Notes: a model not told the origin generated them from the letters alone. A DNA stretch of 64,000 nt from Stegostoma tigrinum (GCF_030684315.1 NC_081371.1:17851440-17915439), one strand, 5' to 3'. Shown: positions 16,661-59,321, counted from the stretch's first letter. Program-made: numbers and translations.

Positions 16661-16770
16661 ACATTAATTCATCTAATTGAACTGTGTAACTGAAGAATCT
16701 CTCCAACGTAATAAAATGTGAGACTGGATGAACACAGCAAGCCCAGCAGCATCTCAGGAGCACAAAAGCT

Positions 16771-16798
16771 GACGTTTCGGGCCTAGACCCTTCTTCAG
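16771..16798 (-). ncRNA. Minimal type I hammerhead ribozyme motif
   Basis: CUGAAGA-A-GGGUCUAGGCCC-GAAAC-GUC on the minus strand; stem I only ~2 bp, activity untested. Confidence 0.7.
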
Positions 16799-17144
16799 AG
16801 AGGGGGATGGGGTGAGGGTTCTGGAATAAATAGGGAGAGAGGGGGAGGCAGACCGAAGATGGAGAGAAAAGAAGATAGGTGGAGAGGAGAGTATAGGTGG
16901 GGAGGTAGGGAGGGGATAGGTCAGTCCAGGGAAGACGGACAGGTCAAGGAGGTGGGATGAGGTTGGTAGGTAGGAGATGGAGGTGCGGCTTGGGGTGGGA
17001 GGAAGGGATGGGTGAGAGGAAGAACAAGTTAGGGAGGCAGAGACAGGTTGGGCTGGTTTTGGGATGCAGTGGGTGGAGGGAAAGAGCTGGGCTGGTTGTG
17101 TGGTGCAGTGGGGGGAGGGGATGAACTGGGCTGGTTTTGCTTCT

Positions 17145-17172
17145 CTGATGAAGGGTCTAGGCCCGAAACGTC
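17145..17172 (+). ncRNA. Minimal type I hammerhead ribozyme motif
   Basis: CUGAUGA-A-GGGUCUAGGCCC-GAAAC-GUC; palindromic ACGU in place of stem III. Confidence 0.72.
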
Positions 17173-18118
17173 AGCTTTTGTGCTCCTGAGATGCTGCTGG
17201 GCCTGCTGTGTTCATCCAGCCTCACATTTTATTATCTTGGATTCTCCAGCATCTGCAGTTCCCATTATCACTGATACAATCTCTCCAACGTACTTTCTTA
17301 CACTGAGCCTATTATACTTCCAAAGCGATTCAAAAGAAAAAAATGTTTTTTCAAGACCCTGTCTGTGCATTAGGACAACAACTGATAGCACGGTCAATAA
17401 TTAGTGATAAATAATCAGTTTCTTTAATGTGAGTCACTTTGAGTGCATTCATTGGGAGATTATTACAACGTTAGAGTATCTGAATCTACTTCCGTTTTAC
17501 TCATTATTAGGAAGATTAGTAAATATTAATACACAATGCAATTATAGTTTCACACTGGAATTGAACAAAAAGTCAATATTTTCTCTTCATTCACTACTTT
17601 ATAATTTAGTGATTACTCATATCTAACACTAATTTCACAATTTCAATTCAGTATTATCCATTAATTGAGAAGTTGAAGCAATATTAAAAAGGAAAACTTC
17701 ATCATAGATACATATTACTCTGACATCCTTCATTATCAATTTACTGAAAACGTATTAGGTCTTCAAAGTACCACTCACTGACCATAGCAACAGGGAAGTG
17801 GAAGTCTACTTGGGCAGGGGGGGTTGAAATGTTGTCAAAGAATCAGCAATGGAATTATTATTCACTCTTTTAACAGTACTTTTGAGCCTAACAGAAACGA
17901 GAGCCAGACAGGAAAGTGGATGTCAGGCCGCAGTCAGGTGAACTGAAATAGATTCAGACCCTACACCTTTGTTATAATACCCCAACAAATGCACTGAAAG
18001 TGATTCATGTAGAGAAACGACCATTATTTGTCACGAACTATCTTAGCTTATGAATGGCAGAGCAGGTGTGGGGCTAAATGGTTAAAACTCAAATGTTCAT
18101 ACGTCGTATTATCTTTAC

Positions 18119-18211
18119 CTGAGGTAGCACTGCTGGTCCTTGGCCCGCCAACCTCTGCAATGAGCTGACCTGGGGGACCTTAATGGGCACTGCAGTAATA
18201 GTTCCCAGCGT
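18119..18211 (-). CDS. PHF21B: PHF21B internal coding exon (31 codons, phase 0/0): [31 protein letters not shown]
   Basis: cttgtgcag acceptor, CAG|gtaaag donor, 93 nt. Nearly matches human PHF21[32 protein letters not shown] (recalled). Too short for the supplied ORF track. Confidence 0.93.
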
Positions 18212-19289
18212 CTGCACAAGTAAAAGGAATGACAACATATTAGAGTCAGAGACGGTTCATGAGTTACTTCCGAAATTATGTTATTGAACCTACGGATGAA
18301 ATTATGGTTTCTACAGAATTTGTAATTTAAAACATTACAACAATTGACATTTAGCTATTCAACATTAACCATTAGGAAATATTTTCCTCAAGTGAATATG
18401 TAAAAGGAGCTATGAATAGAATAAATCCTGCACACAAACACAATACTTCATTCCATGCGAGAATTTGGCTCTTGAAGGAACTAAAATAATTTAATATTTC
18501 AAGTACACACTATCTTTATTCTCATTGATTTTGGAGACCCAAACTTGCACAGTTCAGACATCAATATTAAGTATGGAGGTGGAGCAATTAAAATATTTCT
18601 TCAACTCCTCCAATTCTTATTATTCTCCCTTATTGTTACGGCAGCTTCATACTTATTTAGTTGGAGAACTTGGTCTTGAAGGGTTATGAAAACCTGTAAT
18701 TTTCTTCCCCCCAGAGAAAGGCCAACAAACATTTTTATATCAAGGCATTTTTTGAACGTCATATCATGTGGTAACCGCTTATTTACTGCCGATCCCTGCC
18801 AGGATTTACGACAATCAAGTTACAGCTTCTGTTTTGCTGACTACTCAGATTTTTACTTGGCGGACAGCCTGTGGAAGGAGAAGAGCTTTTCAGTACCGCT
18901 CTCCCACTCCTAAAAACCTTCTGTTGTGGGTCTAGTGTTATACCTGATACCCTGGTGCAATCTTAACTCAAGTTATCCTCAAAAGCATTCAGCACAATAT
19001 TCAATACTGTGTTTCTTCAAGCTGCTTTGGCAAAAATCCCATAGACATCTACTTGTGCTTGGAGACGTCTGTCTTTGCACACCAGAATGCCTGATTGACA
19101 GCTGTCTGAGCATTCTGCACCTTTTCCTTTTTTGCCTTCAAATGACCCAGAAGTGAATCTTTGCGAAGAGAAATCCATTTTTCTTCTTTTCCTAGTATGA
19201 CTGCACATGTCTATTTACAGGAATATGCAATTATATTTTCACATTTGTCATCAGCAATCACTTGCTAACAAGTTGGAAATTCTAAATCA

Positions 19290-19830
19290 CTTAATGGATT
19301 AGGTAGGTCCTTCATGGCTGGTGAGCCCAATCCTATAGCCACATCTCCAACCACACATCTAGCAGATCCTTGGCCTTGAAATTTCTGGCATTCCTTTCTC
19401 CAGTTCCTTTTCCATACTGCCTCTTCCAGAGGCGTTCTTAAAATAAAAAGAAGTGTACTTTCATACAGGAAGTTCCTTCAAGTCAAGAACATTGACATCT
19501 ATGTTGCATTTCATGAGGGAAGCCTTCAGGGAAATCTCTGAAGATTTCCTGTGTTGTCCTCTTGTTTCAGAGCCTTCCTTGAGCTGGACAAAGATGACCT
19601 GCTTTGGCAGTCGGAACTCAAGCATCCTAAACAGAACCAACTCCAACAGAACTGGTTCCAAATATTCGTGGCCTTGACTGTGTTGGGTCCTTCAAGGACG
19701 TGATGTTAGCACACGTGGAGAATTTATCTCAAACAGTGCTGATAGCACTTCCCAAGAGCCTTTAGGTTGTATATACATGTAGTCCAAATTTTGAAACCCA
19801 TATAAGAGTCGGAAGGCTGGCTGCCCACTT
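19290..19830 (-). mobile_element. RTE-clade LINE 3' fragment
   Basis: RMLEFRLPKQVIFVQLKEG...SLKASLMKCNI resembles the RTE/BovB-type C-terminus. Confidence 0.75.
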
Positions 19831-19929
19831 TCATATTACAAACTCTATCAACAAATTTACATCTTCACAGAATAAGTTGTTCAATAAACAAAAAAAAATT
19901 ATGGAAGATGACTTGATGTGAGCACAGAA

Positions 19930-22210
19930 ATTAGCATAATCAAATTTGTAGATGACAGTAAAATGGGTGGGAGAGTAAGTTGCAATTAAGAAGAAATCTA
20001 TAAATGAATAGGTGCAGAGAATGGGTGTGAGATCATCCATTTTGGTCAGAGGAATAGAAAGGCAACTTATTACCTAAATGGAGAGAAACTTCAGAGGGCT
20101 TCAGTGGAGAGAGATCTCAGTGTCCTTGTGCATGAATTGCAGAGCACTGGTATGCAGGTACAGCAGGTTATAACAAATGCAAGTGGAATTTTGGCATTTA
20201 TTGCGAAAGGAATAGAATATGAAAGGGGGGAAGCGTGGCTGCAACTGGATGTAGTTGTATTGAAGACAGTTCAAAGGAGGATCACTAGAGATTGACTCTG
20301 CGGATGTGGGGTTTGTCTTGTGAAGACAGATTGAGCAGTCTAGGCCTATACTCTAGAGTTTAGACGAATGAGAGATCTAATTGAGAGGCTAAAGAGGGTT
20401 GTCAAAGTAGATGTAAAAAGGATGATTCCTCATGTAGGGCAAACTAGATTAAGAGGTCAGTTTTAGGATAAGTAGTAGCAGATTTCAAACCGAAATGAGG
20501 AGAAAGTACTTTGCTGAAAGGGTCATGAATTTGCATAAGTCACTAGCCCAGAGTGTGGCTGATTCTGGGGCACAAAGTAAATTTATGGAGGCAATAGTTA
20601 TGTTTTTAATGATTCATGGGTCAAAGGCTTATGAAGAGGGGTCAGGAAAGTGGAGTTGAGGGTGAGATGAGATCAGCTATGATTGGATCAAATGGCAGAG
20701 CAGGTTCAAGGTGCTGAAATGTCTACTCCTGCTCCTAGTTGTTATGTTCTAAAATAGGGAACAAGGTGGAAACAAGAGAAAGAACAGGAAACTGCAGGCA
20801 AGTCAGCAATTCTGAGGGACACAATTTATCTGCACTCAGAGGCAGAGATTAATTAAGATCCAGTCAATGTGGTTTTGTTAAAAGAGAGGTCATTTCTCAA
20901 CAACATAATTGAATTTTCCAAAAAGTTGAGCACGTGTGCCAATGAATGCCATCCATTCAACATAGTCTGCTCTTCAGCAAGGCTTTTGATAAGGTTCTGC
21001 ATAGAGAGAGATGCTTAGCAAAGATAAGAGCTCATGGGATCCGCAAAAATTTTGTTACTTGGATCCAGAATTGGCTGAACACATGAAGCACAGGATGTTG
21101 ATCAAGGATTTTGTGTGTGACTGGAAGCCTGTGTCTAATGGGGTTCCGTGGTGATCAGTGTTGGGACCATTGTTGTTTGAGGTAAATATGAGCCATGCAA
21201 AAAATTTGCAAATGATGTGTAAATTAGTGCAGTGGTAAATAGTGAGGAAGATGGTCCTAGATTACACAAAGGTAACAGATGTGGCAGTCAGATGGGCTGA
21301 TCGATGGCAAGTGGAACTTAATCCAGCTAAATAGGAGGTCATGCACGTGGGCAAGACAACGAGGCAAGGGGATATATGAGTGGTAGGACCCTAGGAAGCA
21401 CGAAGGTTCAGACTGACTTTGGTACACATGCCCACCAGTGCTTTAAGTCAGCAGGACAGTCAGAATGGCTAAGAAAGCATATTTTGCTTTTATTAGCTGA
21501 GGCACAGAGTTTAAGCTGGAGGTTATGCTGGAACTGTATAACCTGTCAGTTAGGTCAAAGCTAGAGTATTGTGTGTAGTTCTGGAATTCATATTACAGGA
21601 CTGCACTGGAAAGGGTGCAGACGAGATTTATGAGGGTGTTGCATGGACTGGAAAGTTTCATTTATGAAGAAAGATTGGATGGCCTGGGGTTGTTTTCCTT
21701 GCAGCAGAAGAGACTGAGGGGGCACATGACTGGGATTTAGAAAATTGAATGGCATAATGTAAACAGGAAGGAACATTTCCCCTTGGAGAAGGGATCAATG
21801 ATGAAGGGGCAAAGATTTAAGGTTAGGAATTAGGTTGAGAGAGGGTGTGAGGAAATTATTTTTCATTCACAGGCTGATGGGAATCTTGAACTACCGCCTG
21901 TATGAGTGAAAGAGGCAGAAACCCTCAGAGGCAGTCAAGAAAAATTTAGATGTGCATTTGCAATGCCAGGGCACACAAAGTTATTGACCAACTGCTGAAC
22001 AAAGGGATTAGAATGGTCAGTATTCTGAGGAAGAGTCAGATGACCCAAAACATTAACTTTGATTTCTCTTCACAGATGCTGCCAGACCTGCTGAGCTTTT
22101 CCAATGATTTCTGGTTTTATTTGTGTGTTAGAATAGTTAGGTCATGCTGCTTTCAAATGGCACAAACTGAATAGGCCAAATAGTCTTTTTTCTCTGCTGT
22201 AGACCTCTAT
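19930..22210 (+). mobile_element. Two consecutive degenerate CR1 3' halves (~19930-20750 and ~20760-22210), the second containing a PLE-end remnant at ~22021-22120
   Basis: ERDLSVLVH, FSKAFDKV and GVP-SVLGP remnants; two CR1 3' UTRs. Confidence 0.8.
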
Positions 22211-22320
22211 GACTCTATAAACTAGAGTAATAAATCTTTTCATTCCAAGTCTAATACAGAGAAAGCATTCAATTGACTAGACGACAACTGCATAAAATCA
22301 GTTAAACTTATGTTGTAATA

Positions 22321-22515
22321 AAACAGACATGGCAAAGAAACTCAGCAGCCCCGGATTCATCAATTAAAGGGAGAAACAAAGTTAATGTTTAAGTCTGATA
22401 TGTCTCTCCTTCAGACTCAAAATGTTTCTCTCACAGTGGATACCACCAGTCTTGCTGAATTTCTTCAGCACTTCTTCCTTTATTTCAGACCTCTAGTATC
22501 CACTGTACTTTGCTT
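22321..22515. mobile_element. Decayed palindromic PLE-end element (second family)
   Basis: aaactcagcag...gttaatgtttaagtctga faces tcagactcaaaatg...ttgctgaatttc, followed by a tail-like segment. Confidence 0.55.
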
Positions 22516-23284: not shown

Positions 23285-23437
23285 AAATAAAAGCAAAACA
23301 CTGCAGATGCTGGAAAAATGAAAGTGGAGGAGCAACTCAGCAGCATCTGTGGACGAACAGAGTTAACATTTAGAACCCAATATTGCTCTTCTTTGGAGCT
23401 GAAGAGTCATATTAGACTCGAAACATGAACAGTCTCT
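23285..23437. mobile_element. Decayed palindromic PLE-end element with hammerhead-like motif at 23399-23428
   Basis: ctgcagatgctgga tail, then an inverted decayed motif, then ctgaagagtcatattagactcgaaacatg. Confidence 0.55.
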
Positions 23438-28169: not shown

Positions 28170-31100
28170 ATATCAGGCATCAGTGAGGAGGATGATCAGC
28201 AAGGAGGTAGGGGTAGGGTAAGAGTCAGTTCTTAACGTAAAGGGGTAGAGATGGCAGTTGGGGCAGTGGTGTGCTCCTCCTGCCAGATGTGGGAGATCAG
28301 GGAGCAGTCTAGGTGTCCCTGCCATTTGCAGGAAGTGTGCCCACAGCTGCAGCTCCAAAAAGACCACGTGGTTTGGTTGGAGACACAGTTGGACACACTG
28401 AGGAGCATATGGCAGGCAGAGAGTGTGATAAACACTAGTTACAGTGATGTGGTCATACTGGAGGTGAGCAGGTAGTGCAGGAGTCTCCTGCAGCAATTCT
28501 CCTTTCAAACAGGTACACTGTTTTGGATAACGTTGGGAGGGCAGCCTCTCAGGAGACACCAACAGTAGCAGCCAGGCTTGTGGCACTACGACTGGCTCAG
28601 CTGTAGAACAGGGTCGGGCAAAGTCCAGGCGACTCTTAGAAGGGGACTCACTATTCAGGGACACAAACAGGCGTTTCTGTAGCAACAATTGTGATTCCAG
28701 AATGGTGTGTTGCCTCCCTGGTGCCAGGGTCATGGATGTCTCAGAGAGGTTGCATAAAATTCGTAAGGGGGAGGGTGAGCAGCCAGAGGTCATTGTACAT
28801 AATGGCACAAACGACATAGGTGGGAAAAAGGGATGAGGTCCTGAAGGGTGTTTAGGGAATCTGGCAGAAGGTTAAACTGCAAGACCTCAAGGGTAGTATT
28901 ATCCGGATTACTTCCAGTGCCGTGTGTTAGCAACAGCAGGAATAGAAAGATTTGGCAGATGAATGTGTGGCTTGACAACTGGTGCAGGAGACAGGGATTC
29001 AGATTCTTGGATCATTGGGATCTCTACTGGGGCAGAAGTGACATGTACAACAGGGACGGGGTGCACCCGAAATGGAGGGGTACCAATCTCCTGTCCGGGA
29101 GATTTGCTGGAGCGACTCGGGAAGGTTTAAACTAGTTTGGCAGGGCAGTGGGATCCAAAACAGTCAAGAAACAACAGAGAAAGTTGAGGACAGTTCAGAG
29201 ATTGATCAGGGCAAGTTAAATAGTAAAGGCAGTGTTGGTAATCCCAGTCGTAGACAGGGCAGGCAAAAGCACAGCATTTAATTTCAATACAAGAGGCCTG
29301 GCAGGTAAGGCAGATGACATGAGACAGAAATCAGGAGGGCTAAAAGGGACATGAGATGGCATTGGCAGAAAAGGTAAAGGAGAATCTAAGGAGATTCTAC
29401 AAGTACATGATGGGCAAAAGAGTAACTAGGGAGAGAACAGGGCCTCTTAAAGATTAACAAGGTCACCTATATGCACAGCCACAAGAGACGGGCGAGATCC
29501 TAAACGAATACTTCTTGTAGTATTTACCGTGGAGAAAGGTACGGATGGTAGGGAACTTGGGGAAGTAAAGTGATATCTTGAAGAGTGTCCATGTTATAGA
29601 AGTAATCTTAAAACCTAATAAGGTAGATAAATCCCTGGAACCTATTGAAGTGTATACCAGGACTTTGTGGGCAGCTAGGGAGGGAATTCTGGAGCCCCAG
29701 AGATATTTCTATCAACAGCCATGGACAAAGTGTCCAAAGATTAGAGGGTGGATAATGTTATACCAGTATTTAAGAAAGGCTGCAGGGAAATGCATGGGAA
29801 TTAGACTGGTGAGCCTAATGTCCATGGTGGGTAAGTTGTTAGAGGGAATTCTGACGGACAGCTCCACAGGCATTTGCAGAGGCACGGACTCCTTTGAGAT
29901 AATCAGCACAGCTTTGTGTGTGTGAAATCGTGTCTTACAAATCTGACTAGTTTTTTGAAGGCATGACCAAGAAAGTAGATGAGTGACGTGTGTTGTCCAG
30001 ATGGCCTTTAGCAAGGCCTTCGACAAGGTAACACATGGTAGTATGGTTGAGTAAGGTTAAATCTCATGATATTCAGGGAGAGCTAGCCAACTGAACACAA
30101 ATTGACTTGATTGTAGAAGTTAAATCCTGGTGGTGCAGGGTTGTTTTTCAGACTGGCGGCCTGTGACACTGGTGTGCCACAAGGATCAGTGTTAGGTCCA
30201 CTGTTATTCATCATTTATATCCATGATTTGGATAAGAATTTAGGAGATATGGTTAGTAAGTTTGCGGTTTGATTGATGGTACAGTGGATAGTGAAGGTGG
30301 ATATCTGGGGATGCAGCGAGATCTTAGTCAACTGGGCCAGTGGGCTGAGGAATAGCAGACTGAGTTTAACTTAGATAAATGCAAGCTGTTGCAAGGCAAA
30401 CCAGGATAACAAAGTGTGGAGCTGGATGAACACAGCAGGCCAAGCAGCATCTTACGAGCACAAAAGCTGACGTTTCAGGCCTAGACCCTTGTGCACCTAA
30501 GATGCTGCTTGGCCTGCTGCGTTCATCCAGCTCCACACTTTGTTATCTTGGATTCTCCAGCATCTACAGTTCCCATCATCTCTGATCGCAAGGCAAACCA
30601 GGGCAGGGGATTTACACAGTCAATAGTACGGCCCATCCCTAAAGAACAAAGAGATGTATGGGTGCGGACTCATAGCTCCTTGAAAATGGAGTCACAGGTA
30701 GACAGGGTGGTGAAGGTGACTTTTGGATTGCTAGCTTTAATTGGTCAGAGCACTGAGTGTAGGACATGAGATGTCTTGTTGCAGCTGTATAATAAATTGG
30801 TGAGGCCACATTTGGAATATTACATGCAGTTCTGGCCATCCTATTATAGAAAGAATATTATTAAACTAGAAAGAACGCAGAAAAGATTTACTAGAATGGT
30901 ACCTGGGATGAAAGGTTTGGTTAAAAGCAGAGGTTGGATAAGTTGGGACTTTATTTTCTGCTGGAGCTTGGCAAACCAAGGGGTGAATAAAGTCATGATA
31001 GATGGCAGACAGCTTTTACTCATGGCAGGGGAGTCTAAAACTAGACGGTATAGGTTTAAGATGAGAGGAGAGAGATACAAAGGGTCCAGAGGGGCAATTT

Positions 31101-34430: not shown

Positions 34431-35045
34431 AATCAGAGAGTTCCGAAGTTGCACGACACTGAGAAACAAAATTCTCCACATCTCTGTCCTGAAGCTTTCA
34501 GAGTCCCATAGTTCTGGACTGACTCACAACAGGAAACAGACTTCTCATGTCTTTATCAAGATCATTCAGGATCTTAAAACACCTCAATCAAATTACCCCT
34601 CAGTCTTCCATACTGCAACTTGCCCTTACGATCCCCTAAAATGTTTATGATTTTAATTTCTGTCTTTATCCCATGTGTATTTCCCAAATATGCATTTCAT
34701 CAACTAGAAAATTTAAAGTTTAAGTAAAAGGGAGCCGATTTTTTTTTTATTTTTCAGTTTGGTGTCTGCAAGAATAACTCAATGGGATTCCCGCTTCAAC
34801 CATTTTGAAAGCAACTTTCTCTGGAGATTTGGAGATTGCCATGGTTCATCAGAAAATTCAGATGCCAGGAAAAGAGAAGTTGCACCACTGAAATTACTAG
34901 ATCTTTATATGTATCGTCCTTCAAGGTCAGTGGGAAGCGCTGTTGCCTCACCACTAACCAAACCATCCAGTGCTATCTCTGTATAACAAAGTGTGGAACT
35001 GGATGAACACAGCAGGCCAAGCAGCATCTGAGGAACACAAAAGCT

Positions 35046-35073
35046 GACGTTTCAGGCCTAGACCCTTCATCAG
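35046..35073 (-). ncRNA. Minimal hammerhead motif (G-U at base of stem II)
   Basis: CUGAUGA-A-GGGUCUAGGCCU-GAAAC-GUC on the minus strand. Confidence 0.6.
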
Positions 35074-38000
35074 AGAGGGGGATGGGGAGAGGGTTCTGGA
35101 ATAAATACGGAGAGAGGGAGGCAGATCAAAGATGGAGAGAAAAGAAGATAGGTGGAGAGAGAGAGTATAGGTGAGGAAGTAGGGAGGGGATAGGTCAGTC
35201 CAGGGAAGACGGACAGGTCAAGGAGGCGGGATGAGGTTAGTAGGTAGGAAATGGAGGTGTGGCTTGAGGTGGGAGGAAGGGATAGGTGAGAGGAAGAGCA
35301 GGTTAGGGAGGCGGGGACAAGCTGGGCTGGTTTTGGGATGCAGTTGGAGAAGGGGAGATTTTGAAGCTTGTGAAGTCCACATTGATACCATTGGGCTGCA
35401 GGGCTCCCAAGTGGAATATGAGTTGCTGCTCCTGCAACCTTCGGGTGGCATCATTGTGGCACTGCAGGAAGCCCATGATGGACATGTCGTCGAAGGAATG
35501 GGAGGAGGAGTTAAAATGGTTTGCGACTGGGAGGTGCAGTTGTTTATTGCAAACCGAGCAGAGGTGTTCTGCAAAGCAGTCCCCAAGTCTCCACTTGGTT
35601 TCCCCAATGTAGAGGAAGCCACACCGGGTACAGTGGATACAGTAAACCACATTGGCAGATGTGCAGGTGAACATCTGCTTAATATGGAAAGTCATCTTGG
35701 GGCCTGGGATGGGGGTGAGGGAGGAGGTGTGGGGGCAAGTGTAGCACTTTCTGGGGTTGCAGGGGAAGGTGCCAGGTGTGGTGAAGATGGAGGGGAGTGT
35801 GGAGCGGACAAAGGGAGTTACGGAGAAAGTGGTCTCTCCGGAAGGCAGACAAGGGTGGGGATGGAAAAATGTCTTGGGTGGTGGGGTCAGACTGTAGATG
35901 GCGGAAGTGTCGGAGGATGATGTGTTGTATCTGGAGGTTGGTGGGGCGGTATAGGCAGACGGAACCCTGCCCACAGCCGACGACCTCATTGCTCCGCCCA
36001 CTACCTCCACAGCCAGCAACCCCAGAGAAGACAGCCACACTGAGCCCTGCCAAATCTTCACCATCCCCCCAGACCTCCACTTAACTGAGGACGAACGGTC
36101 AATCCTCAGCAAGGGGCTCACCTTTGTGCCCCTTCACCCACACATCAACTAATACCAGTCACATTTGGACATAGAGCAGTTTTTCCGCCGCCTTCGCCTC
36201 CTTCTTTAACCGGGAGCCTAACCCTCCCTCAACCGACCCCTTCACCCACCTCCAACACAAATCCTCTTCCTGGACACCACCTCCAGGCCTCCTACCCTCC
36301 CTCGACCTCTTCATCACCAACTGCCGTCGTGACAATAACCGCCTCAACCTCTCCACCCCTCTCACCCACTCGAACCTCTCCCCCGCAGAACGGGCAGCCC
36401 TCCGCTCCCTCCACTCCAACCCCAACCTCACCATCAAAGCCACAGACAAGGGAGGCGCTGTGGTAGTATGGCGCACTGACCTCCACATCGCCGAGGCCAA
36501 ACGCCAACTCTCCGATACTTCCTCCTACTGCCCCCTTGTTCATGGCCCCACCCCCGAGCACCAAACTATCATCTCCAATACCATCCATGACCTCATCACC
36601 TCAGGGGACCTCCCACCCACAGCCTCTAACCTTATTGTTCCCCAACCCCGCACGGCCCGTTTCTATCTCCTTCCCAAAATCCACAAACCCGCCTTCCCTG
36701 GTCAACCTATTGTCTCAGGCTGTTCCTGCCCCACCGAACTCATCTCCACCTATCTGGGCTCCATTTTCTCCCCCTTGGTCCAGGAACCCCCCACCTACGT
36801 CGGTGACACCACCCAGACGCTCCACCTCCTCCAGAACTTCCAATTCTCTGGCCTCCAACACCTCATTTTCACCATGGACGTCCAGTCCCTATACACCTGT
36901 ATTCCTCATGCAGATGGCCTCAAGGCCCTCCGCTTCTTCCTGTCCCGCAGGCCCGACCAGTCCCCCTCCACCGACACCCTCATCCGCCTAGCTGAACTCG
37001 TCCTTACCCACAATGACTTTTCTTTCAATTCCTCCCACTTCCTACAAAGATGGTGGCCATGGGTACCCGCATGGGCCCAAGCTATGCCTGCCTCTTTGTA
37101 GGTTACGTGGAACAGTCCCTCTTCTGCACCTACACTTGCCCCAAACCCCACCTCTTCCCCTGTTACACTGATGACTGTATCGGCACCGCCTGTTGCTCCC
37201 CAGAGGAGCTCGAACAGTTCATCCACTTCACCAACATCTTCCACCCCAACCTCAAGTTCACTTGGGCCATCTCCAACACATCCCTCACCTTCCTGGACCT
37301 CTCAGTCTCCATCTCAGGTAACCAGCTAGAAACTGATGTCCATTTCAAGCCCACCGACTCCCACAGCTACCTAGAATACACCTTCTCCCACGCACCCTCC
37401 TGCAAAAATTCCATCCCCCATTCCCAATTCCTCCGCCTCTGCCGCATCTGTTCCCAGGATGAGGCATTCCACTCCCGCACATCCCAGATGTCCAAGTTCT
37501 TCAAGAACCGCAACTTTCCCCCCGCAGTGGTTGAAAACGTCCTTGACCGCGTCTCCCGCATTTCCCACAACACATCTTACACACCCCGCCCCTGCCACAA
37601 CCGCCCCAAGAGGATACCCCTCGTTCTCACATACCACACCACCAACCTCCGGATACAACTCATCATCCTCCGACACTTCCGCCATCTACACTCCGACCCA
37701 ACCACCCAAGACATTTTTCCATCCCCACCCTTGTCTGCTTTCCGGAGAGACCACTCTCTCCGTGACTCCCTTGTCCGCTCCACACTCTCCTCCAACCCCA
37801 CCACACCCGGCACCTTCCCCTGCAACTGCAGGAAGTGCTACACTTGCCCCCACACCTCCTCCCTCACCCCCATCCCAGGCCCCAAAATGACTTTCCATAT
37901 TAAGCAGATGTTCACCTGCACATCTGCCAATGTGGTTTACTGTATCCACTGTACCCGGGATGGCTTCCTCTACATTGGGGAAACCAAGCGGAGGCTTGGG

Positions 38001-38578
38001 GACCGCTTTGCAGAACACCTCTGCTCGGTTTGCAATAAATAATTGCACCTCCCAGTCGCAAACCATTTTAACTCCCTCTCCCATTCCTTTGACATGTCCA
38101 TCATGGGCTTCCTGCAGTGCCACAATGATGCCACCCGAAGGTTGCAGGAACAGCAACTCATATTCCACTTGGGAGCCCTGCAGCCCAATGGTATCAATGT
38201 GGACTTCACAAGCTTCAAAATCTCCCCTTCCCCAACTGCATCCCAAAACCAGCCCAGTTCATCCCCTCCCCCCACTGCACCATACAACCAGCCCAGCTCT
38301 TCCCCCACTGCATCCCAAAACCGGCCCTGCTTGTCCCCACCTCCCTAACCTGTTCTTCCTCTCACCTGTCCCTTCCTCCCACCTCAAGCCGCACCTCCAT
38401 TTCCTACCTACTAAACTCATCCCGCCTCCTTGACCTGTCCGTCTTCCCTGGACTGACCTATCCCCTCCCTACTTCCTCACTTATACTCTCCTCTCCACCT
38501 ATCTTCTTGTCTCTCCATCTTCGGTCCGCCTCCCTCTCTCTCCCTATTTATTCCAGAACCCTCTCCCCAACCCCGTCT

Positions 38579-38606
38579 CCGATGACGGGTCTAGGCCCGA
38601 AACGTC
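38579..38606 (+). ncRNA. Hammerhead motif with mutated core (CCGAUGA), probably inactive
   Basis: ccgatgacgggtctaggcccgaaacgtc. Confidence 0.5.
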
Positions 38607-39339
38607 AGCTTTTGTGCTCCTCAGATGCTGCTTGGCCTGCTGTGTTCATCCAGCTCCACACTTTGTTATCTTGGATTCTCCAGCATCTGCAGTTCCCATT
38701 ATCTCTGCTCGCTATCTCTGTATATCATGTCAGTCCATCTACTGCCCCCTACTGTCAGCCTACTGAACCAACTCCCAGGATTGCAATGAGCCACACCATA
38801 TATCTAGTTAACTGTTTTGAAGAAGGCCATCATCGCATAACATCATCCTTCCCTATCTCTACATCTTCCTTTAGCACTACAATTATCCCATCTTCCAATG
38901 TGCACTGTACAACCATTGTCCATTTCCTCATATTGGCAGCTGTCTGGAAATCACATGCTGGAATTCACTGTGTTATCCATCAACCTCTGTGTTTTTCTCT
39001 CTCTTCCTTCAGCTACTTCAAGCACCCTTATTTGTTCAAGATTTTACCCAATTACTCTTCTTAAAAATGTTTTGTTCTTTGTTTCAGAGTTCATTTTTAC
39101 AATTGCCGCCTCTGTAAAGCTCCTTAGGAAAGTTTTCTATGCAAAAAATAGTATGTAAATCAACATTATTAGTTTACATTTGGTATACCACAATACACAC
39201 AAAAGACATTGGAAATATTCAAGCAGGTGCTGGAGGTGTAAAAGCAAGTTCAAGGCTGATGACCTATCAGTATTGGGAAAAGTTGAGAGATTCTAAAGTG
39301 GGGAAAAGAGCCAAATTAATTACAAAATGCAAAAACAAC

Positions 39340-44917: not shown

Positions 44918-44947
44918 ACACACACACAACACACGGACACACACACA
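44918..44947 (+). repeat. Imperfect (CA)n microsatellite
   Basis: acacacacacaacacacggacacacacaca. Confidence 0.85.
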
Positions 44948-47149
44948 TGCTCCCTTTTTAGTTAAACCAACTCATGCAAGAACTTGTTACAAAATTACTT
45001 CCTAGTTCCAGTCAAGGCTCAAGGCAATGATGCACAAAAATTCTCACGCAGCAGAAATGTGGAGAATTCAATCAGGCTTTAGAAGTTTTTTTTGGCACTA
45101 CACAATTCATTGCAAAGAAATACTAAGAAATCAATTTCGATGTTTTGGAGTCACAGACAGTTTCATAAAACAATTCACTTCTAGCATTTTAGGAAGGAAA
45201 AAATAATTTGAAATGGACTCTTCCAAACTGGTGAAAAAATGGCGATTTCAAAACAAAACCAAGTAATACCCGATTCCCTCACAGGTCTTTGGGGCATGAG
45301 GCAGGCATTTCACTGCCTCACTTAGCTCGTACAGGCCAACTATCAAAACAGTACAAATTTCTAAAAGAACAATAAATCTTCATCAGATTTCATTCCAACC
45401 TTGAGATGGAAGTAGTTCCAATGAGATAAAATATATATTCCAACGGCCTGATTTGGAAAATTTCATCTAAGTTCTATTTCACAAAACAGCTCAGCAATAA
45501 GACAGTTTTGGGACTAAAAGAAGAACTCAGTGGAAGGCACGTTTTACAATCGACTGTGTAAAACGATTGGTTGCAAAGCACATGTTCAATATTATAGGTC
45601 ACAAATGACAAATCTTGAATTATTTGTTATACGATCTAAACTATAATTAAGACAAATCAAAAGGAAATCAAGTCAACCTACCAGTGTGAACAATATAAAT
45701 TTTCTTTAAAATCTTTAAAATGCAGCTTACAAATAAATAACTGAATTTCTGATCAGTTCAATTATTCTAAACAATTCACAATACCCAAACACACTCCCAG
45801 CAAAAGTACAAAAACTCCTTCTATTTTCCTTAAAAAAAATCCCTTCCAAAGGGATCCCAAAGCAAAATGCACAACATTGATAAATATAAGCCATAGCGTA
45901 GCTGAATGGGCTTAAAACAAATAAATCTTGACATTTGTTCCATATGGTGCAGTACCGCCAAGTTGATGCTGCTTGCAGCTATCTCTACCAGAAAATCTAC
46001 TGCAATGACGTTTACACAAACATGATCCTCACTTATCCACTTTAGTTCATCTGCAACTGTTTCTATGACACTCAACATTCAACTATGCCTATGTCAACTC
46101 TATTTCTGCTGCTCTCTATTTTGGCCTCTAGAAAAGATCAATTGTAGCTTTTCAGCTCTTATCAAATGACTGAACTGGCACACTCTTTTCTGGGTGTCAA
46201 TTTTGAAAGTTTTTCTTTCCTCTTTCAATTTCAAGTACTTTTTCGTTTACCTTATGAGTTGTATGTGGAATTATAATCCTGCATTTTAGCAACCACATCT
46301 CAAAGGCTTTTATCTTCCTTTCACAGTTCCAGGTTTCTGAAGCAAAACAAGAAAGCGAATAAAACTTACCAACTTATGAGTTTTTTCCCATTATGAGCTT
46401 GGGTTTTCTTGGTGTCAACAGTCCTTCATCTTGAAATTGCTTCTAGTTCATGCTTCTTTTCTGCACCCATCATTTCATCATTTCTCCTCAATAGACGTGC
46501 TTTTCCAACATGACATCATCTGCATCAATACTCACTATATTTTTCTAACATATTCGTTCCAAATACTTTTTTGTTTTCTCTTTCAGGTTTGTTCTCAATC
46601 CACATTCTAAATGCTGTATTTTACCTAATCCATGATATTTTCTAGGGCCTCTTCTAATTCTACATGTAGCACTAGGTCAGCACAACACCATAGCTTGTAG
46701 TGTTCTTGCATCCAATGTTTACCCTTAGAAGTTCAATTAATTCTCTGAATATTTACTCTGTATACAAACTGTATAATTTTAGCAACATTACACAGGCTTG
46801 TCATACTCCTCTCCATACTTGAAGCATATCAGATTTTCCAACCTCTAACCCGACACTCTCCATTCAGAGCAAACGTAGGCTCTCGACAATCTTTACCATC
46901 CATATCACATTTCAAACTTAACAATGAACTTTTGATGATAAATGTAATGATTTTATTTTTCACTGTTATTGTTTGTCCTTTTCTATGCAACACCATCCAC
47001 ATCAATCTTAGCTAGCTTTTTCTAACATATTCCTTTTAGCCATTTTATTTGAGATAATGGGAACTGCAGATGCTGGAGAATCCAAGACAACAAAATGTGA
47101 GGCTGGATGAACACAGCAGGCCAAGCAGCATCTCAGGAGCACAAAAGCT

Positions 47150-47177
47150 GACGTTTCGGGCCTAGACCCTTCATCAG
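47150..47177 (-). ncRNA. Minimal hammerhead motif
   Basis: CUGAUGA-A-GGGUCUAGGCCC-GAAAC-GUC on the minus strand; flanks GAGAGCU/AGCUUUU can form a 7-bp stem I with two G-U pairs. Confidence 0.75.
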
Positions 47178-47183
47178 AGCTCT

Positions 47184-47211
47184 CTGATGAAGGGTCTAGG
47201 CCCGAAACGTC
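47184..47211 (+). ncRNA. Minimal hammerhead motif
   Basis: ctgatgaagggtctaggcccgaaacgtc. Confidence 0.72.
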
Positions 47212-48023
47212 AGCTTTTGTGCTCCTGAGATGCTGCTTGGCCTGCTGTGTTCATCCAGCCTCACATTTTGTTGTCTCAGCCATTTTATTTGGCTCTGTTT
47301 AGTATTTGGTCCACATTCTAAGGTGCTGAATTTTACTTGATCCATGATATTTTGCAGGGCCTCGTCTGATTCTGCAAGTTGTGCTAGATCATCAGCATAT
47401 TACAGTTTGTAGTATTCTTGCATTCAACTTTTACCACTAGAAGTGCATCTAGTTCTCTGAATGTATATTATTATATGTACAAATTCTTGCTCATTTCTAG
47501 ATATTTGTCAAGGGTTGTTCTTAGGTTAGATATTCTGTCTCTTGTTCCCATTCCAGGTCTACTTCCAGACTGGGTTTCACCAATTTCAGCTTGCGTTATT
47601 TCTTTCTGCTATGATTTTCAAATTTGTTTGAATGTGATGACTTGTTCAACCTTATAGTTCTAGTTACTGGACTCCATTACTTTTGTTTCTTATGTAACTT
47701 CATGAATAGATGCCTCAAACAACTTGAAACATATCCTTTGGTATAAACTTGAACATGAATTTCTCCTTTTTATTCATTCATAGGATGTTGGCATTGCTGG
47801 GCCACCAGTCGCCCATTTGGGATTCCCCATATGAAAATTAAAAGTCACATTGCTGTGGGTCTGGAGTCATATGTAGGCCATAGCAGGTAAGGACAATATT
47901 AGTGAAGCAGGTGGGTTTTTCCAACAATCAATGGTTTCATGATCAATAGATTCTTTATTCCTGATTTTTACTTAATTCAAATTCAAGGTTCAAACCAGAG
48001 TCCCCAGAAAATTAGACACAACA

Positions 48024-48418
48024 AGTGCATAGGAGGTTGAGAGGTGACCTTATAGAGGTTTATAAAACAATGAGAGGCATAGATAAGGTGATCAGCAAAG
48101 GTCTATTCCCTAGGATGCGTGAGTTCAAAACTAGGAGGCATATTTTTATGGAGTGAAGGAAAGATTTGAAAGGAGCCTGAGGGGCAGGATTTTCACACAA
48201 AATGGTTCATAGGTGGAATGAACTGCCAGCAGAAGTGGTAGATGCAGATACAGTTACAACATTTCAAAGACATTTGGACAAGTGCAGGAATAAGAAGGGT
48301 TTAGACGCAGATGGGCCAAAAGCAGGTAAATGAGATGAGTTTAGTTTGGGAAACGTGGTCAGCATGGACGAGTTGGATCAAAGGGTCTGTTTCCATGCCG
48401 TATGACTTTATGGCCTCA
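48024..48418 (+). mobile_element. CR1 3' end; near-identical inverted copy of 48703-49089
   Basis: Direct read-through comparison with the reverse complement of 48703-49089. Confidence 0.9.
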
Positions 48419-48702: not shown

Positions 48703-49740
48703 TGAGGCCATAAAGTCATACAGCATGGAAACAGACCCTTTGATCCAATGCTGACCACATTTCCCAAACTAAACTCGTCTCATTTACCTGCTTTTGGTCC
48801 ATCTGCATCTAAACCCTTCTTACTCCTGCACTTGTCCAAATGTCTTTGAAATGTTGTAACTGTACCTGCATCTACCACTTCTGCTGGCAGTTCATTCCAC
48901 CTATGAAAAATCTTGTGTGAAAATCCTGCCCCTCAGGTTCCTTTCAAATCTTTCCTTCACACCATAAAAATATGCCTCCTAGTTTTGAACTCACGCATCC
49001 TAGGGAATAGACCTTTGCTGATCACCTTATCTATGCCTCTCATTGTTTTATAAACCTCTGTAAGGTCACCTCTCAACCTCCTATGCACTAGTGAAAGAAG
49101 TCTCAGCCTATCAAGCCTCTCCTCATAATTAAAACCCTCCGGTCCCATTAACATCCTGGTAAATTTATTCGGAACCCTCTCCAATTTAGAACATAAAATT
49201 AGCTTTATTATCACATGAACTCAAATCAGTACAGCGAAAAGTTTACAAGTCATCACTTACAATGCCATCTTAGGTACAAAAGGCACCTAGGTACAGAATC
49301 TGAAGTACTAATTATTAGGGAAAACAAATTAGAAAAATAAAGTAGGACAAAGTCCAGCATTACAGATCATAGAAATAAATCAGATAACTAAAGAAATAAA
49401 AAGTTCAGAGCATTGAGTATAGCAGTTCAGGCCTCAACAATGATGTCCAATTCCTATACTCAGTGGTCTCAGCAATGAAGGCAAGCATGCCAAACACCTC
49501 CTTAACCACCCTGTCTACCTACGATGTAATTTACAAAGAACAATGTACTGAACCCTTAGACCTCTGTCCTACACACTACCGATGGCCCTACTTTTAATTG
49601 TATAAGTCCTGTCCTTGTTCATTTTACCAAAAAAGCAACACCTTGCATTTATCCAAATTAAACACCATCAGCTACTTCTCAGCCAATTGGCCCAAGAGAT
49701 CATGGTCCCTTTGTTATATCAGATAATCTTCTTCACTGGG
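48703..49740 (-). mobile_element. CR1 3' half interrupted by the unclassified repeat (~49197-49409)
   Basis: LERVPNKFTRML...RRLRGDLTEVYK ORF fragment; RT remnant resumes after 49410. Confidence 0.88.
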
Positions 49741-54400: not shown

Positions 54401-55385
54401 AAGATCTCTTTGGATCCATTTTGTACTTCAACATACTTCGATTTGGGGAAAAAATATATTGCTCTTAGCTTGATTTAGAAAAAAGGTTGGACCAGTTTCA
54501 AATGGAGAACTTTGTTTTTTAGGAATGTTAGCCTTCAAACTCAAAATGCTGCCTATATGCCAGAAACAGGCACTACAAAACATTTCAAAGCTTCAAACAT
54601 GAAACTTAATCTATGCTTATCAAAATAGCATGCACTAAATGTACAGATAGTTGGTGTCCTTGCACATCACAAAACAAAAAATAACAGAACATATTCCCTC
54701 ATTAAAAATGTTGAATGTTCTCTCAATGATTCATAACCAACCTGTCGTATAATTTTCTAATCTTTTATGGCTGCGTCTCCCACAATTTTTTTATTTCTAG
54801 GTGTCTTGCTCAGCGTCCTATTCAAGTTGGGAACATCAATGCCAGTAGATTACTTGCTTCATTAAATCGAGAAATATATTTTACAAGGCACAATGATAAT
54901 TAAAGAACGGTTACAGCACGGACAATGGTCATTCAATAGTCAAGCCCATGCCGGTCCTCTGCAAACATAATTTAGCTTATCCTGCTCCCTGTCCAGGATA
55001 CTGGTTGTGGATGATCAGCCATGATCATAATGAATGGTGGTTCTGGCTCAAGGGGCTGAATGGCCTACTCCAGCACCTACCGTCTATTGTCTGTCGTTTT
55101 TCCGTTGTCATGCCACTATTCTTCCCACCAGGTGTTTATCCAATTCTCTTCTGAAAACCACAAATGAATCAGCCTCCACAGCCCTCCATGGTATATCAAA
55201 ATAGCTTACTGCAGGGTAATTTTTCTCATGTTGCCTTTCGTTCTTTTGCCAATGAAAAGAGTGAACAATAAATGCCAGCCCAGCCAGCAAAGCCCACATC
55301 CAATAAGGAGGGGGAAAAAAAAAGGCAATTTTAAAACATGAATACAGTTTAATTTCCAGAAATGGTATCATTGATAAAAATATTT

Positions 55386-55670
55386 GGTGGGTATGGTGGC
55401 TCGGCATTCAGTACTGCTGCCTCACAATGCTGTGGACCTGGGTTCGATTCCAGCCTTGGGTAACTGTGTGTATGGACTTCGCACGTTCTCCCCATAATTG
55501 CCACTTTCTTCAGTTTCCTCCCAAAGTCCAAAAATATGCACATTAAGTGGATTGGCCATGCTAAATTGCCCTATAGTCTCCAGGGATGAAAAAGTTAAAT
55601 TGATAAGCCATGTTAAATGCGGGTTTACAGGAAAAGGGTGGGAGACTGGGTCTGGGAGGGTTGCTCTTTG
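55386..55670 (+). mobile_element. HE1-like V-SINE (3' truncated)
   Basis: tggctcggc A-box-like and gggttcgattcc B box; V-domain core. Confidence 0.85.
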
Positions 55671-56169
55671 GATAAATAAATATCTTACATGCGTATGCAC
55701 ATCCAGGCAACAGACTGGATATCTGGAGACAATTTTGCAAAACACTTGTCTTAACAGAACATTGAAAGTACCTTAACTTTTGAAAAAGAATACTCTAAGT
55801 AAACAAATGTAGGCTCCAGTTGCGGCACCTATGAGATACAAGTTGTGATGTTCTTCTGACCTTTTTTTGCTATTTTCGTTGCTTTTCTTCAAACTGTTTT
55901 AAATGGTAACTTAAAATCAGTTAAAATTTATAAGACTTTTTAAATCAAACATTCTGCCCTCCCCATAACCAAAACATTTTTGCCCCCCCCAACACCAGTG
56001 TTTCCATCATCAAACCTGCCCTGAAGTATGAGCTAAACCTGTCAGATTTTCCATCCGCCCAACCAACCACGTCCTCCCACCACGCGCACCCCTCCCCCCG
56101 CCCCACCCCCAACTTCGAATTTAGGTTTTACTCCTGTGGCTTTTATTATCCCACCATTTGATCCTAACT

Positions 56170-56520
56170 TAGAACTTCACAGAATATCTACCATGTGGAA
56201 ACAGGCCATTTAGCCCGACAAGTCCACACTGCCCCGAGGATCATCCTACCCAGACGCATCCCCTCCTATCCTTTCCTGTAACCCTAAATTTCCCATGGCT
56301 AATCCACCTCATTTACACACCCCTGGACACCATGGACAATTTAGCATGGCCAATCCACCTAAGCCACACATTTCTGGACTGTAGGAGGAAATCAGAGCAC
56401 CTAGTGAAAACCCACCTCATGGAAAGACACAGGGAGAAGGTGCACACTTCACAACTTCCACCCAAGGGTGGAAATGGAACCTGGTTCAGTGAAGCAGCAA
56501 TCTCCAACTGTTGTTTTTCT
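56170..56520 (-). mobile_element. HE1-like V-SINE
   Basis: Reverse complement of the SINE core and CR1-derived tail. Confidence 0.8.
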
Positions 56521-57763
56521 ACCCCGAGTATCTATTTTCCAGACTCCTGCTTGAGCCAGTTTTTGCTTCATCTGCCCACATTGCTTATCCTGGCAACTCT
56601 AGGTTTCTTTTCATCGTTTAAATGTCTTTTTTATTGCCCTTGAATTTATCCTTGTGCTGACATTGCTGACTGTTTATCATTCCTTTCAGGAGCGTAGATT
56701 TTTGGGGTGAGAAACAGAGGGTTTGTGGAAGGAGGGGGGTGAGTGTGAGGGGGAGAGAAATTTGGGGGTGAGGGGGAAAAGAGCAATAGAATGGAGAAAT
56801 TTGAGCTGAAGACGGGCATACAGGGAGATTTTTTTTTAAAAAGTGTATGGAATGTTCAGAAATGTACATTTAATGGTACAAGGGAAAAGAATTCAGTGAA
56901 TTTCTCATGCAAACTACTTCAGGCCCATCTAACCTAACTTTTAAGAAAGTTGCACTAAAAAGTTAACATTCTAATCATCTTGCTAACCAAACCATCCCAG
57001 GACTTTATTCTGCTCCTCATGGACTCAACCTGATATGGCCTATGCTACTACTCTTGCATTCAGCTTTTCTTTCCAATTGTTAATTCATGGTGATGCTCTT
57101 TTTTCCCCATTTTTGCTCCTGTACTAGTCATGGTTTAGGAATCAGGTCACCTTCCCTGCGTTTTACTTAACTTCTTGCAGCACACATTGCTCCAAAATCT
57201 TCACTGCTTTCCTTTTTTTGGCCTGGAAAACTAATACCTTATAAAGTGCTTTCCAAAATAATTTTTATTACGTTTGAATAGCATCTACGATATTAAGTGC
57301 TACTTCCGTACTTATTCTTATGTTTTGAGTAACAATTCACCAATTAGGTGTCTGAGAAGTTATTTTTTCAAATCAGCTAGATCAGCTGCCATCCATCTGT
57401 ACAAACCTGTAGGCTTCTTGCATGGCAAATCCCTGTAGCAAGCTTCACATAAACGCAGCTAATAAAATTTTGGATAAAGCTGACAAAAAATAGTCAGCAT
57501 TTTAAAGCAAACAACTACATTTTCTCAACTTGTTCTGTCATTTCTCTTTGATTAAAAAAAACTGCATTGTATCAAGGTACCTATACATTAAAACAAAAAG
57601 GAAAGATTTGCATCTCTCCCACAATTTCAGAATGCTCCAAAGTATAACCAGATGTACTTTCTTTTGAAGTGCAGTCATTGTAGGAAAACGGTATCCAACT
57701 TGTAGACAGCAATGTCTATCAAAAGCATTGTCACAATAATAAATAGTCAGTTTCTGGTGTTAG

Positions 57764-57969
57764 ATAACAAAGTGTGGAGCTGGATGAACACAGCAGGCCA
57801 AACAGCATCTTAGGAGCATTAAAGCTGACGGTTCGGGCCTTGAAGGGTCAAGGCCCGAAACGTCAGCTTTTGTGCTCCTAAGATGCTGCTTGGCCTGCTG
57901 TGTTCATTCAGCTCCACACTTTGTTATCTCGGATTCTCCAGCATCTGCAGTTCCCATTATCTCTTATCA
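57764..57969 (+). mobile_element. Short palindromic PLE-end insertion inside a Deu-SINE
   Basis: Imperfect TSD CAGTTTCTGGTGTTAG (57748-57763) / CAGTCTCTGATGTTAG (57970-57985); arms meet inside hammerhead stem II. Confidence 0.9.
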
Positions 57970-59321
57970 CAGTCTCTGATGTTAGCTGAGAGTTAAATAT
58001 TGACAGGATAAAGGATGAGCTGCCATGCTGTTCTTCAAATTACTGCCACAGGATCTCTGTCCAGCTGAGGGGCATGGCTAGAAATATCATCTGAAAGACC
58101 ACATTTTTAAGCAGTGCAGGATTCCTTCAGTACTACATGAGAGTTTCAGCCTAGGTTGTGTGCTCAAGTCAGTACTCCAAAATTTGTATTTTCCTCTGAA
58201 TCAATGGACACATAACATTTTAGAATTAGCATGTTTATTACTTTATGATTCATAATTACTTGAAGGCTGAAGTTTTTAATTTGAAAGAAGGTAGTGTGAT
58301 CAAAGGACACGTTTCTTTTGAAAATATAAATTCTTGGGATTATGGTCATCTTAATGAGGCCAGTATTTACTAGTCATCCTTTAAGCCTTTGAACAACTTC
58401 AGTCCATTTGGTGAATTCACTTTCACAATACTGTTTGGTAGGACATTTCAAGAGCTTTTCCTAGTGATAGGAAGGGGACAGATGTGTCACCAAATTAGAA
58501 TAATAAGCAACTTTAAGGTCATGGCACTTCTACAAACCTGATGCTTTGTCTTTTTAAGATGCAGAAATTGCAAGTTTAGGAAGTGCTCCCAAGGTATCCT
58601 AGGGTGATTTACTGCAATTTATCATGTTTGGGACATCAGCGATTGACAGATGAAAGAAATATTTAAGTTCATAGATGGGAGGAGGCATGATTAAATTAAC
58701 TCTTCTGTTCTTGATATCAAGCTCCGAAGACTGCTGGTACAACTTCGCTTATCCAGCTAGGTGAAGAGCGCTCCATCACATTCATATCTTCTGTGCTTTA
58801 CATAGTGGAAAGGGTTGGCAGAGTCAGTGAGTTGGGAGGTGAGTCACTCAGTATTTGGCCTGTTCCAGTAGTCACAGTATTTATGCGGTTGGTCTATTGA
58901 GTTCCTTAACAGTGGTGACATCCTGGATGCTGATTATGTGCAATTCAAAGATGGAAAAGCAATGAACATCAATTCTGTTAGTTAAGCTCCCACTCATTGG
59001 AGGTGGTCTTTGCCTGGAACTTAGTGTACATATTGGTTGCCATTTATCAGTCAAGCTTGGAAGTAGTCCAGACATTGTTGCATGCAAGCATGTATTCCTT
59101 CATTATCTAAAGAATTGCAAATAATCTGAAATCGGTACGATTGCCAGTGAATAAGCTACACTAATGGAGAAAAGTAATTGACAATGAAAAACTGAAGACA
59201 GTTGGACTTAGGATGCAGTCCTGAAGAATCCTGCAGCAAATGATTGAATTTGCCTCTCATTTATGTTTAGATCAAAGCTGTAATAAGTTCTGGAGTCAAG
59301 GGGCACTGTGGGGTCCAAAAT

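Follow-up and report, generated by a model that had tools for sequence, protein, structure and literature searches.

Five Head-to-Head Insertions in the Window

A 64,000-nt stretch of the Stegostoma tigrinum genome (GCF_030684315.1 NC_081371.1:17851440-17915439; genome of 3.2 Gb), referred to below as the window, contains five insertions of a Penelope-like element (PLE). Each of them consists of two arms with outward-facing 3' ends, one bearing a short tail and the other lacking it, enclosed within a target-site duplication (TSD). These insertions, together with their common plan, had been proposed in a first-pass annotation and were recovered in all five cases at the same positions, with TSDs of 15, 15, 14, 14, and 16 bp (the last one with two mismatches) and with the 47 kb copy flipped so that its tail lies on the left. 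Element coordinates are counted from the C of the TTATC that precedes the tail (0; window position 38670), the tail spanning +1..+40 and negative values lying upstream. The features of the five copies, including those of the reverse transcriptase-endonuclease (RT-EN) reading frame, are the following:

Copy A, 16696..16710: left TSD, 15 bp
Copy A, 16711..17139, minus strand: tail-less arm, extending to -423 and exceeding its tailed partner in length
Copy A, 17142..17277, plus strand: tailed arm, starting at about -94, the probable RNA 5' end
Copy A, 17145-17172, plus strand: hammerhead core, predicted cut at 17172/17173
Copy A, 17278..17292: right TSD, 15 bp
Copy B, 30391..30405: left TSD, 15 bp
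Copy B, 30406..30490, minus strand: tail-less arm, extending to -85
Copy B, 30489..30587, plus strand: tailed arm, from -58, the arms overlapping by 2 nt at the junction
Copy B, 30588..30602: right TSD, 15 bp
Copy C, 34972..34985: left TSD, 14 bp
Copy C, 34986..35952, minus strand: tail-less arm of ~970 nt, to -1039, with the GIY-YIG region inverted
Copy C, 35955..38710, plus strand: tailed arm, 5'-truncated at -2715
Copy C, 36175..38348, plus strand: broken RT-EN frame, in pieces 36175-37101, 37017-38042, and 38043-38348
Copy C, 38545..38552, plus strand: TATA-like TATTTATT, at -125, 30 nt upstream of the wall of arm 5' ends
Copy C, 38579..38606, plus strand: minimal type I hammerhead motif with degenerate core, read by eye, predicted cut at 38606/38607 (-63)
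Copy C, 38671..38710, plus strand: tail (+1..+40), the segment between the two putative priming registers
Copy C, 38711..38724: right TSD, 14 bp
Copy D, 47038..47051: left TSD, 14 bp
Copy D, 47052..47179, minus strand: tailed arm, to -93
Copy D, 47180..47277, plus strand: tail-less arm, from -95, with an intact hammerhead core at 47184-47211
Copy D, 47278..47291: right TSD, 14 bp
Copy E, 57748..57763: left TSD, 16 bp, two mismatches
Copy E, 57764..57843, minus strand: tail-less arm
Copy E, 57841..57969, plus strand: tailed arm
Copy E, 57970..57985: right TSD, 16 bp, two mismatches

The tail-less ends of the five copies fall at -4..+2, in line with the near-constant start described beforehand, and four of them show the expected 1-3 nt of microhomology to the TSD, the 47 kb copy having 0. 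Within each copy, the diagnostic base that follows GCATCT (C, T, or G) also matches between both arms, as had been noted; an apparent haplotype mismatch between the arms of copy C in the alignment looks like an artefact of the latter.

A Neptune/Nematis-Type Element in Large Numbers

Endonuclease-bearing (EN+) PLEs are marked by a DKG motif and two cysteines between GIY and YIG, and the Neptune and Nematis clades in addition by a CX2-5CxxC linker that is absent in Penelope/Poseidon (PMC8557442). The pieces of the copy C frame hold the DKG motif (as TDKGG), RT motifs, a CX4CxxC linker (CNCRKCYTC and CNPRKCYTC) ahead of the endonuclease, and a GIY-YIG region with two internal cysteines. The cysteine motif of the latter reads VVYCIHCTRCGFLYIG in the inverted arm, its third Cys being replaced by Asp in the forward arm. 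Because of the DKG motif, the linker, and the internal cysteines, the family is classed, by these motif definitions, as a Neptune/Nematis-type EN+ PLE. The Pfam GIY-YIG match to the copy C frame is weak (E=7e-4, below the cut-off), no Pfam RT match to this broken frame was obtained, and PDB sequence searches with two of its pieces gave no relative. A by-eye reading against the description of minimal hammerhead ribozymes (PMC4209133) places a minimal hammerhead core at -91..-64 of the pseudo-long terminal repeat (pLTR); an Rfam scan of window positions 34800-38900 returned no match, hammerhead included.

Genome-wide counts of exact matches amount to at least 248,632 for a 25-nt core and 51,623 for one variant of the tail; a pattern search with one tail variant gave 64,312 matches, the tails existing in several variants. 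Read-through from the tail into the start of the open reading frame (ORF) is found in 253 exact matches; the RNA thus runs beyond the tail into the ORF start, and, since these read-through copies exist beside 51,623 exact tails, both termini are internal to the RNA. One locus (L106) keeps the inverted arm, the pLTR, and the ORF start together, the pLTR being there a partial tandem copy with read-through.

One Tailed and One Tail-less Arm per Paired Insertion

The survey covered 888 kb, comprising 264 kb contiguous on C22 and loci from the first 3.6 Mb of C1 that were picked by anchoring on the core or the tail. It yielded 439 ends and 261 candidate pairs, 104 of the latter with a TSD score of at least 10. 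Random arm pairs scored 9 or less in 149 of 150 cases and reached 10 or more once in 150, which excludes chance as the source of the TSDs. Three of the 104 validated pairs were left out of the detailed counts (leaving 101 clean pairs), two more were omitted for length coupling (99), and six with long unaligned centres were set aside (93 resolved pairs).

All but one of the TSD-validated pairs (103/104) combine a tailed with a tail-less arm, the remaining one having a diverged tail, and none is tail/tail. When the TSD is ignored, the same combination appears in 93 of 99 adjacent pairs within 300 nt, again with no tail/tail case; the other six are three pairs scored as tail-less/tail-less (two with diverged tails and one in a tandem array) and three with read-through units. 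A single tail/tail palindrome (L147, C1:14681220) was met among 20 loci picked by junction pattern; it is centred on the hammerhead site and carries two different tail variants, and no TSD was found for it.

The tail-less arm ends at -4..+5 in 81 of the 101 clean pairs and the tailed arm at +31..+45 in 93 of them, with a median offset between registers of 37 nt (interquartile range 34-41). End positions are bimodal as well among 297 young ends: 134 lie at or before +8, 154 at +26..+52, and 6 beyond, only 3 stopping between +9 and +25. TSD length is 13-16 bp in 78/101 and 14-16 bp in 66/101 pairs. Register offset does not correlate with TSD length (rho 0.07, n=77), nor do the positions of the two termini with each other (rho 0.10).

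The claim that the family always inserts as two head-to-head 3' ends does not hold. The pairing census of young ends (identity of at least 88%, n=331) places 188 in validated pairs and 52 next to an upstream inverted piece with no TSD call, while 82 are single-armed, 11 of which are units of 50-nt tandems, and the remaining 9 extend past the edge of the locus. Given these 82 single-armed ends, ~60-65% of insertions are estimated to be head-to-head and ~35-40% single-armed. Once tandem units and one doubtful call were removed, single-arm copies with a TSD score of at least 10 were found at both registers, 9 tailed and 8 tail-less. Tail-only inverted remnants beside single arms were not evident: of 169 tails, 5 had no core, in most cases because it had been mutated or had undergone small deletions.

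Apparent Traces of Priming at Both Target Junctions

Microhomology between TSD and template exceeds simulation at both kinds of ends. Its mean is 1.79 nt for tail-less ends (70 clean of 101) versus a simulated 0.79 with a maximum of 1.30 in 1000 runs, and 2.11 nt for tailed ends (72 clean of 101) versus 0.83 with a maximum of 1.21, also in 1000 runs; 24 insertions fetched later gave means of 1.4 and 1.83, respectively. Just outside both TSD edges the host sequence carries the same motif, an A at -7 in 65/101 and 68/101 cases against a background of 0.285. A like host bias at both edges is expected if a single endonuclease specificity cut both nicks. For the pLTR-ORF junction, the minimum free energy fold did not exceed shuffled sequences in stability (z 0.85) and therefore gives no structural account of the two registers.

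These traces bear on the published suggestion that the arms come to differ in their tails only once the cDNA has been made, when the endonuclease resolves an intermediate (PMC8557442), a process that would likewise yield one tail per insertion. Microhomology to the continuation of the template at both ends and the spread of tail-less ends over -4..+5 fit priming instead, and RT start sites observed in vitro coincide with the ends of the tail (PMC11167929); we hold resolution to be a highly improbable account of the tail.

Both Arms Probably Stem From One RNA in Most Cases

The lengths of the two arms are strongly coupled, 72 of 99 pairs having both arms short, 23 both long, and only 4 being mixed (p=3e-18). 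Private deletion junctions are common to both arms in C1_58433, C1_2569247, C1_110775, and C1_1355669. Haplotypes at five columns are identical in 55/83 pairs versus 22% for random pairs, 9 pairs differing at two columns and 3 at four; diagnostic bases are thus not shared by the arms of every pair. One RNA is the usual case, and in a minority of insertions two templates were involved, the template was switched, or conversion followed at a later time.

Double priming might otherwise have taken place on two separate RNAs, or on a tandem RNA offering two pLTR units, if these were held by an asymmetric dimer in which each protomer is fixed at its own register. Swapped subfamily haplotypes in pairs with good TSDs (e.g., C1_2569247, C1_2504094, and C1_3371937), pairs in which one arm stops at -63 and its partner at -92 or beyond, and the two tail variants of L147 would all be accommodated in this manner. 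Independent RNAs, however, predict ~37% of mixed short/long pairs where 4/99 are found, and the excess of identical haplotypes as well as the rare deletion junctions present in both arms also argue against them, making this an unlikely explanation.

Strict register coupling and shared variants would equally follow from one priming event and a subsequent self-primed or fold-back hairpin whose second strand ends ~36 nt short (cf. the antisense self-priming of PMC3846280), a process also in keeping with the 55/93 junctions that are symmetric within 15 nt and with short fold-back inserts such as ctct. Neither arm, however, nests in the other: the tail-less one reaches more than 15 nt further 5' in 18/93 pairs, by up to 1.4 kb, and the tailed one in 20/93, which weighs against fold-back copying. 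In the window itself, the tail-less arm of copy A is longer than its tailed partner and therefore not a fold-back copy of it. A later asymmetric deletion of the centre could mimic such non-nesting, yet the shorter arm would then not be expected to end at -94 or -63. The existence of single-arm copies that are tail-less and flanked by TSDs, and of pairs with discordant haplotypes, also counts against the hairpin, whose overall probability we consider to be very low.

Regarding the arm-arm junctions, 51/93 are flush or overlapping (mean overlap 1.9 nt) and 42/93 have inserts. Identical junctions recur 1,002 and 791 times in the genome as palindromes, as would be expected if copies descended from one or a few pre-formed palindromes moving as units. 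Nonetheless, the junctions of the 101 pairs are highly varied rather than shared by all copies, and the same ones arose repeatedly across subfamilies. Moreover, the 15 AGCT-centred palindromes fetched from the genome differ in their TSDs, which are unrelated, and represent more than one core haplotype and more than one variant of the tail. Such a descent is thus largely refuted and retains hardly any probability.

As a separate observation, in L165 and L163 the last ~16 nt of the tailed arms belong to one subfamily and their upstream part matches the subfamily of the partner arm, a possible template switch just after priming.

5' Ends of the Arms

Arm 5' ends are sharply bounded, 81 of 186 lying at -102..-83 and 0 at -160..-103, and 1,002 exact palindromes in the genome are centred at this -95 wall. 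In two subfamilies the first base of the arms is the C with which a pyrimidine tract begins, 30 nt downstream of TATTTATT. We take this tract to resemble the TCT initiator consensus. The 30-nt spacing between TATTTATT and the wall fits a TATA box, for which a window of -33..-23 is described (PMC5287114). A G precedes the starting C in 23/25 non-C cases, and an untemplated G has been taken as cap copying for L1 and SVA (PMC4859970). Position -95 is thus the probable 5' end of the RNA, namely a capped start; in a rival reading, the wall would reflect stalling of the RT ahead of the C-rich tract.

A second peak of 5' ends coincides with the predicted hammerhead cut at -63, where 9/93 insertions have an end versus a mean of 0.98 at nearby positions, six of these nine having an unrelated partner end. 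Palindromes centred at -63 number 791, versus 50 and 26 for two nearby self-complementary tetramers. Most arms end at the probable RNA 5' end (~ -95) or at the hammerhead cleavage site (-63), and not at random, a point missed in the first-pass annotation.

A Proposed Mechanism of Coupled Double Priming

Considering (i) the microhomology and host motif at both ends, (ii) the single arms of either register, (iii) the lack of nesting, and (iv) the varied junctions, coupled double target-primed reverse transcription, with a single RNA as the usual template, is in our view the best explanation for these insertions and a reasonably probable one. Double priming at two registers with head-to-head joining, as advanced in the first-pass annotation, is therefore the best-supported model, its universality and its novelty having been overstated. 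In this process, the GIY-YIG endonuclease, probably a dimer, would nick both strands at two sites that resemble each other in preference and are separated by ~14-15 nt, and both 3'-OH ends would prime cDNA within the RNA, aided by 1-3 nt of pairing. One nick would prime at register ~0 and the other at ~+36, the two arms being observed almost never at the same register. Priming at the pLTR located at the transcript start would let both cDNAs extend until the template ends, either at the probable capped start (~ -95) or where the hammerhead has cut (-63), producing palindromes of ~100-230 bp, and priming at a downstream pLTR would make both cDNAs long. The cDNA 3' ends would then be linked through microhomology, through small switches of template, or by end joining, fill-in creating the TSD, and a single productive nick would leave a single-armed copy of either register.

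Several points weigh against coupled double priming on one RNA or against parts of it. Two or more mismatches at subfamily columns occur in 22/98 pairs versus 2.4 expected, partly through alignment error (12/83 when ungapped), and a single RNA is not universal because ~10-20% of pairs exceed background at these columns. About 30% of target junctions hold untemplated bases. PMC11167929 reports that priming proceeds without homology, that the strands do not differ in their start site, and that hammerhead cleavage is dispensable in vitro. As to the 5' ends, 17 of the 23 G's adjoin the partner arm and could be its own last base; at -63, the tetramer AGCT is its own reverse complement, which favours symmetric joining whether or not cleavage occurs, and one of the control tetramers, ACGT, holds a CpG, which decays. 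Finally, the sample, taken from the initial 3.6 Mb of C1 and from 264 kb on C22, is non-random, and partial anchoring on the tail hides tail-less/tail-less pairs.

Other Arrangements of the Family and Neighbouring Repeats

Internally deleted non-autonomous units, in which the ORF start at +130..+245 is joined to -150..-235, were found at L162, L176, L112+L137, and L165. They form retrozyme-like pLTR-to-pLTR tandems of 300-480 nt, some with the tail on the inverted arm. Tandem 50-nt arrays of the pLTR segment -46..0, of up to ~14 units with the tail at the end, occur at L024 (C1:1104570), L182, and L195, which suggests that at the tail-less register priming was repeated or slippage took place several times.

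Window positions 12131-14330 hold a member of another, older PLE family, which has its own hammerhead-like motif and tail and whose ORF shows 66% identity to that of copy C. Among 15 adjacent head-to-head pairs of it (e.g., L099, L101, and L129), ~11 combine, by eye, tailed and tail-less arms with an offset of ~35-40 nt; four reach a TSD score of at least 10, one is tail/tail without TSD, two are interrupted, and one is unclear. Copies of the main family are nested in the pLTR of their own or of the older family at L129, L030, and L055. The window also contains a 345-nt inverted pair (48021-48365 and 48748-49092; 96% identity) around a spacer of 382 nt. Further related repeats lie at 6589-6823 and 9999-10330, and the pair resembles two pieces of another interspersed repeat family.

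Relation to Known Systems

In L1 twin priming, the RNA is also used as a template from the second nick, and the resulting pair of cDNAs is joined head-to-head within the TSD, the second site being variable and far upstream, the pieces non-overlapping, and the event a minority one. Here, in contrast, the second site is fixed ~36 nt away, the arms overlap fully, and the paired form is the majority outcome; as had been anticipated, the form of twin priming is not matched, the process working otherwise in the same manner. Twin priming of L1 is named in PMC4859970.

An inverted 5'-truncated copy and a one-sided tail of 30-40 nt are typical of PLEs, the tail having been ascribed to endonuclease resolution and the origin of both inverted repeats and tail called undefined (PMC8557442). 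The present family shares with the Neptune/Nematis EN+ PLEs of that source the DKG-type RT, the CX2-5CxxC linker, the C-terminal GIY-YIG, the pLTR hammerhead, the inverted copy, and a tail of 30-40 bp. It differs in having exactly one tail per head-to-head pair, the tail being described there as optional, and in its clear 13-16 bp TSDs in ordinary sequence. A bias towards microsatellites has been hypothesised for the Neptune clade (PMC8557442), whereas the TSDs of our survey, which favours TSD-callable sites, are ordinary sequence with only a weak A-rich flank motif.

For Poseidon PAc of Anolis, a predicted dimer, both strands were cut and extended in vitro from two start sites bounding the tail (PMC11167929). 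Internal priming at two tail-bounding sites and a hammerhead just upstream are common to both systems, but PAc belongs to a different clade and showed neither strand difference nor priming homology. The main text of that paper addresses neither within-insertion coupling of the two sites nor TSD length or the inverted junction, and the paper reports no hammerhead-cleaved RNA ends in RNA-seq. Pen2a, Pen2, and Pen3a of Adineta vaga display an inverted pLTR, a 31-bp tail, a TSD, and a palindromic head-to-head junction, as here, but with TSDs of 8-10 bp, few copies, and self-priming on an antisense template as the proposed mechanism (PMC3846280). Penelope of Drosophila virilis is similar in its variable-size inverted terminal repeats, 34-bp repeat, and promoter within the pLTR, its internal promoter being TATA-less and accompanied by an intron (PMC2377424), unlike the TATA-like box found here upstream of the putative start.

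The hammerhead resembles the minimal ones of PLEs and non-LTR retrozymes in its minimal core, in an additional base ahead of stem II, and in a helix III that is palindromic (PMC4209133, bioRxiv 10.64898/2026.07.22.740005). In Schistosoma, minimal hammerheads form opposite-strand pairs 100-700 bp apart, according to the same two sources. According to PMC4209133, evidence of cleavage in vivo is lacking, whereas arm 5' ends pile up here at the predicted cut.

The layout itself has thus already been published for PLEs (PMC8557442, PMC3846280, PMC2377424), and two start sites with extension of both strands are known in vitro (PMC11167929). A coupling, double-priming, or run-off model for PLEs was not found in the open-access literature searched, though subscription papers may hold one. 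Register coupling and the run-off evidence appear to be new.

Implications for Penelope-like Elements

It can be tentatively proposed, with a confidence that stays a little short of the halfway mark, that PLE integration is by default a two-primer process, in which a dimer would cut both strands and copy one RNA twice from obligatorily different registers, the genome preserving, in the form of run-off ends, both the RNA's capped start and its cleavage by the hammerhead. Predictions for the published in vitro system are a stagger of 14-15 nt, one register per nick, and cDNAs that run off where the RNA is capped or where the ribozyme cuts. A family that numbers its arms in the hundreds of thousands and has clean TSDs makes such questions of PLE integration countable. 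The role of the hammerhead in vivo is called open in PMC4209133 and PMC11167929, and the -63 ends would be the earliest sign from living cells that PLE hammerheads cleave. If true, the two-primer reading would explain the inverted pLTR and the tail across PLE clades, the older family of this genome showing the same pairing.

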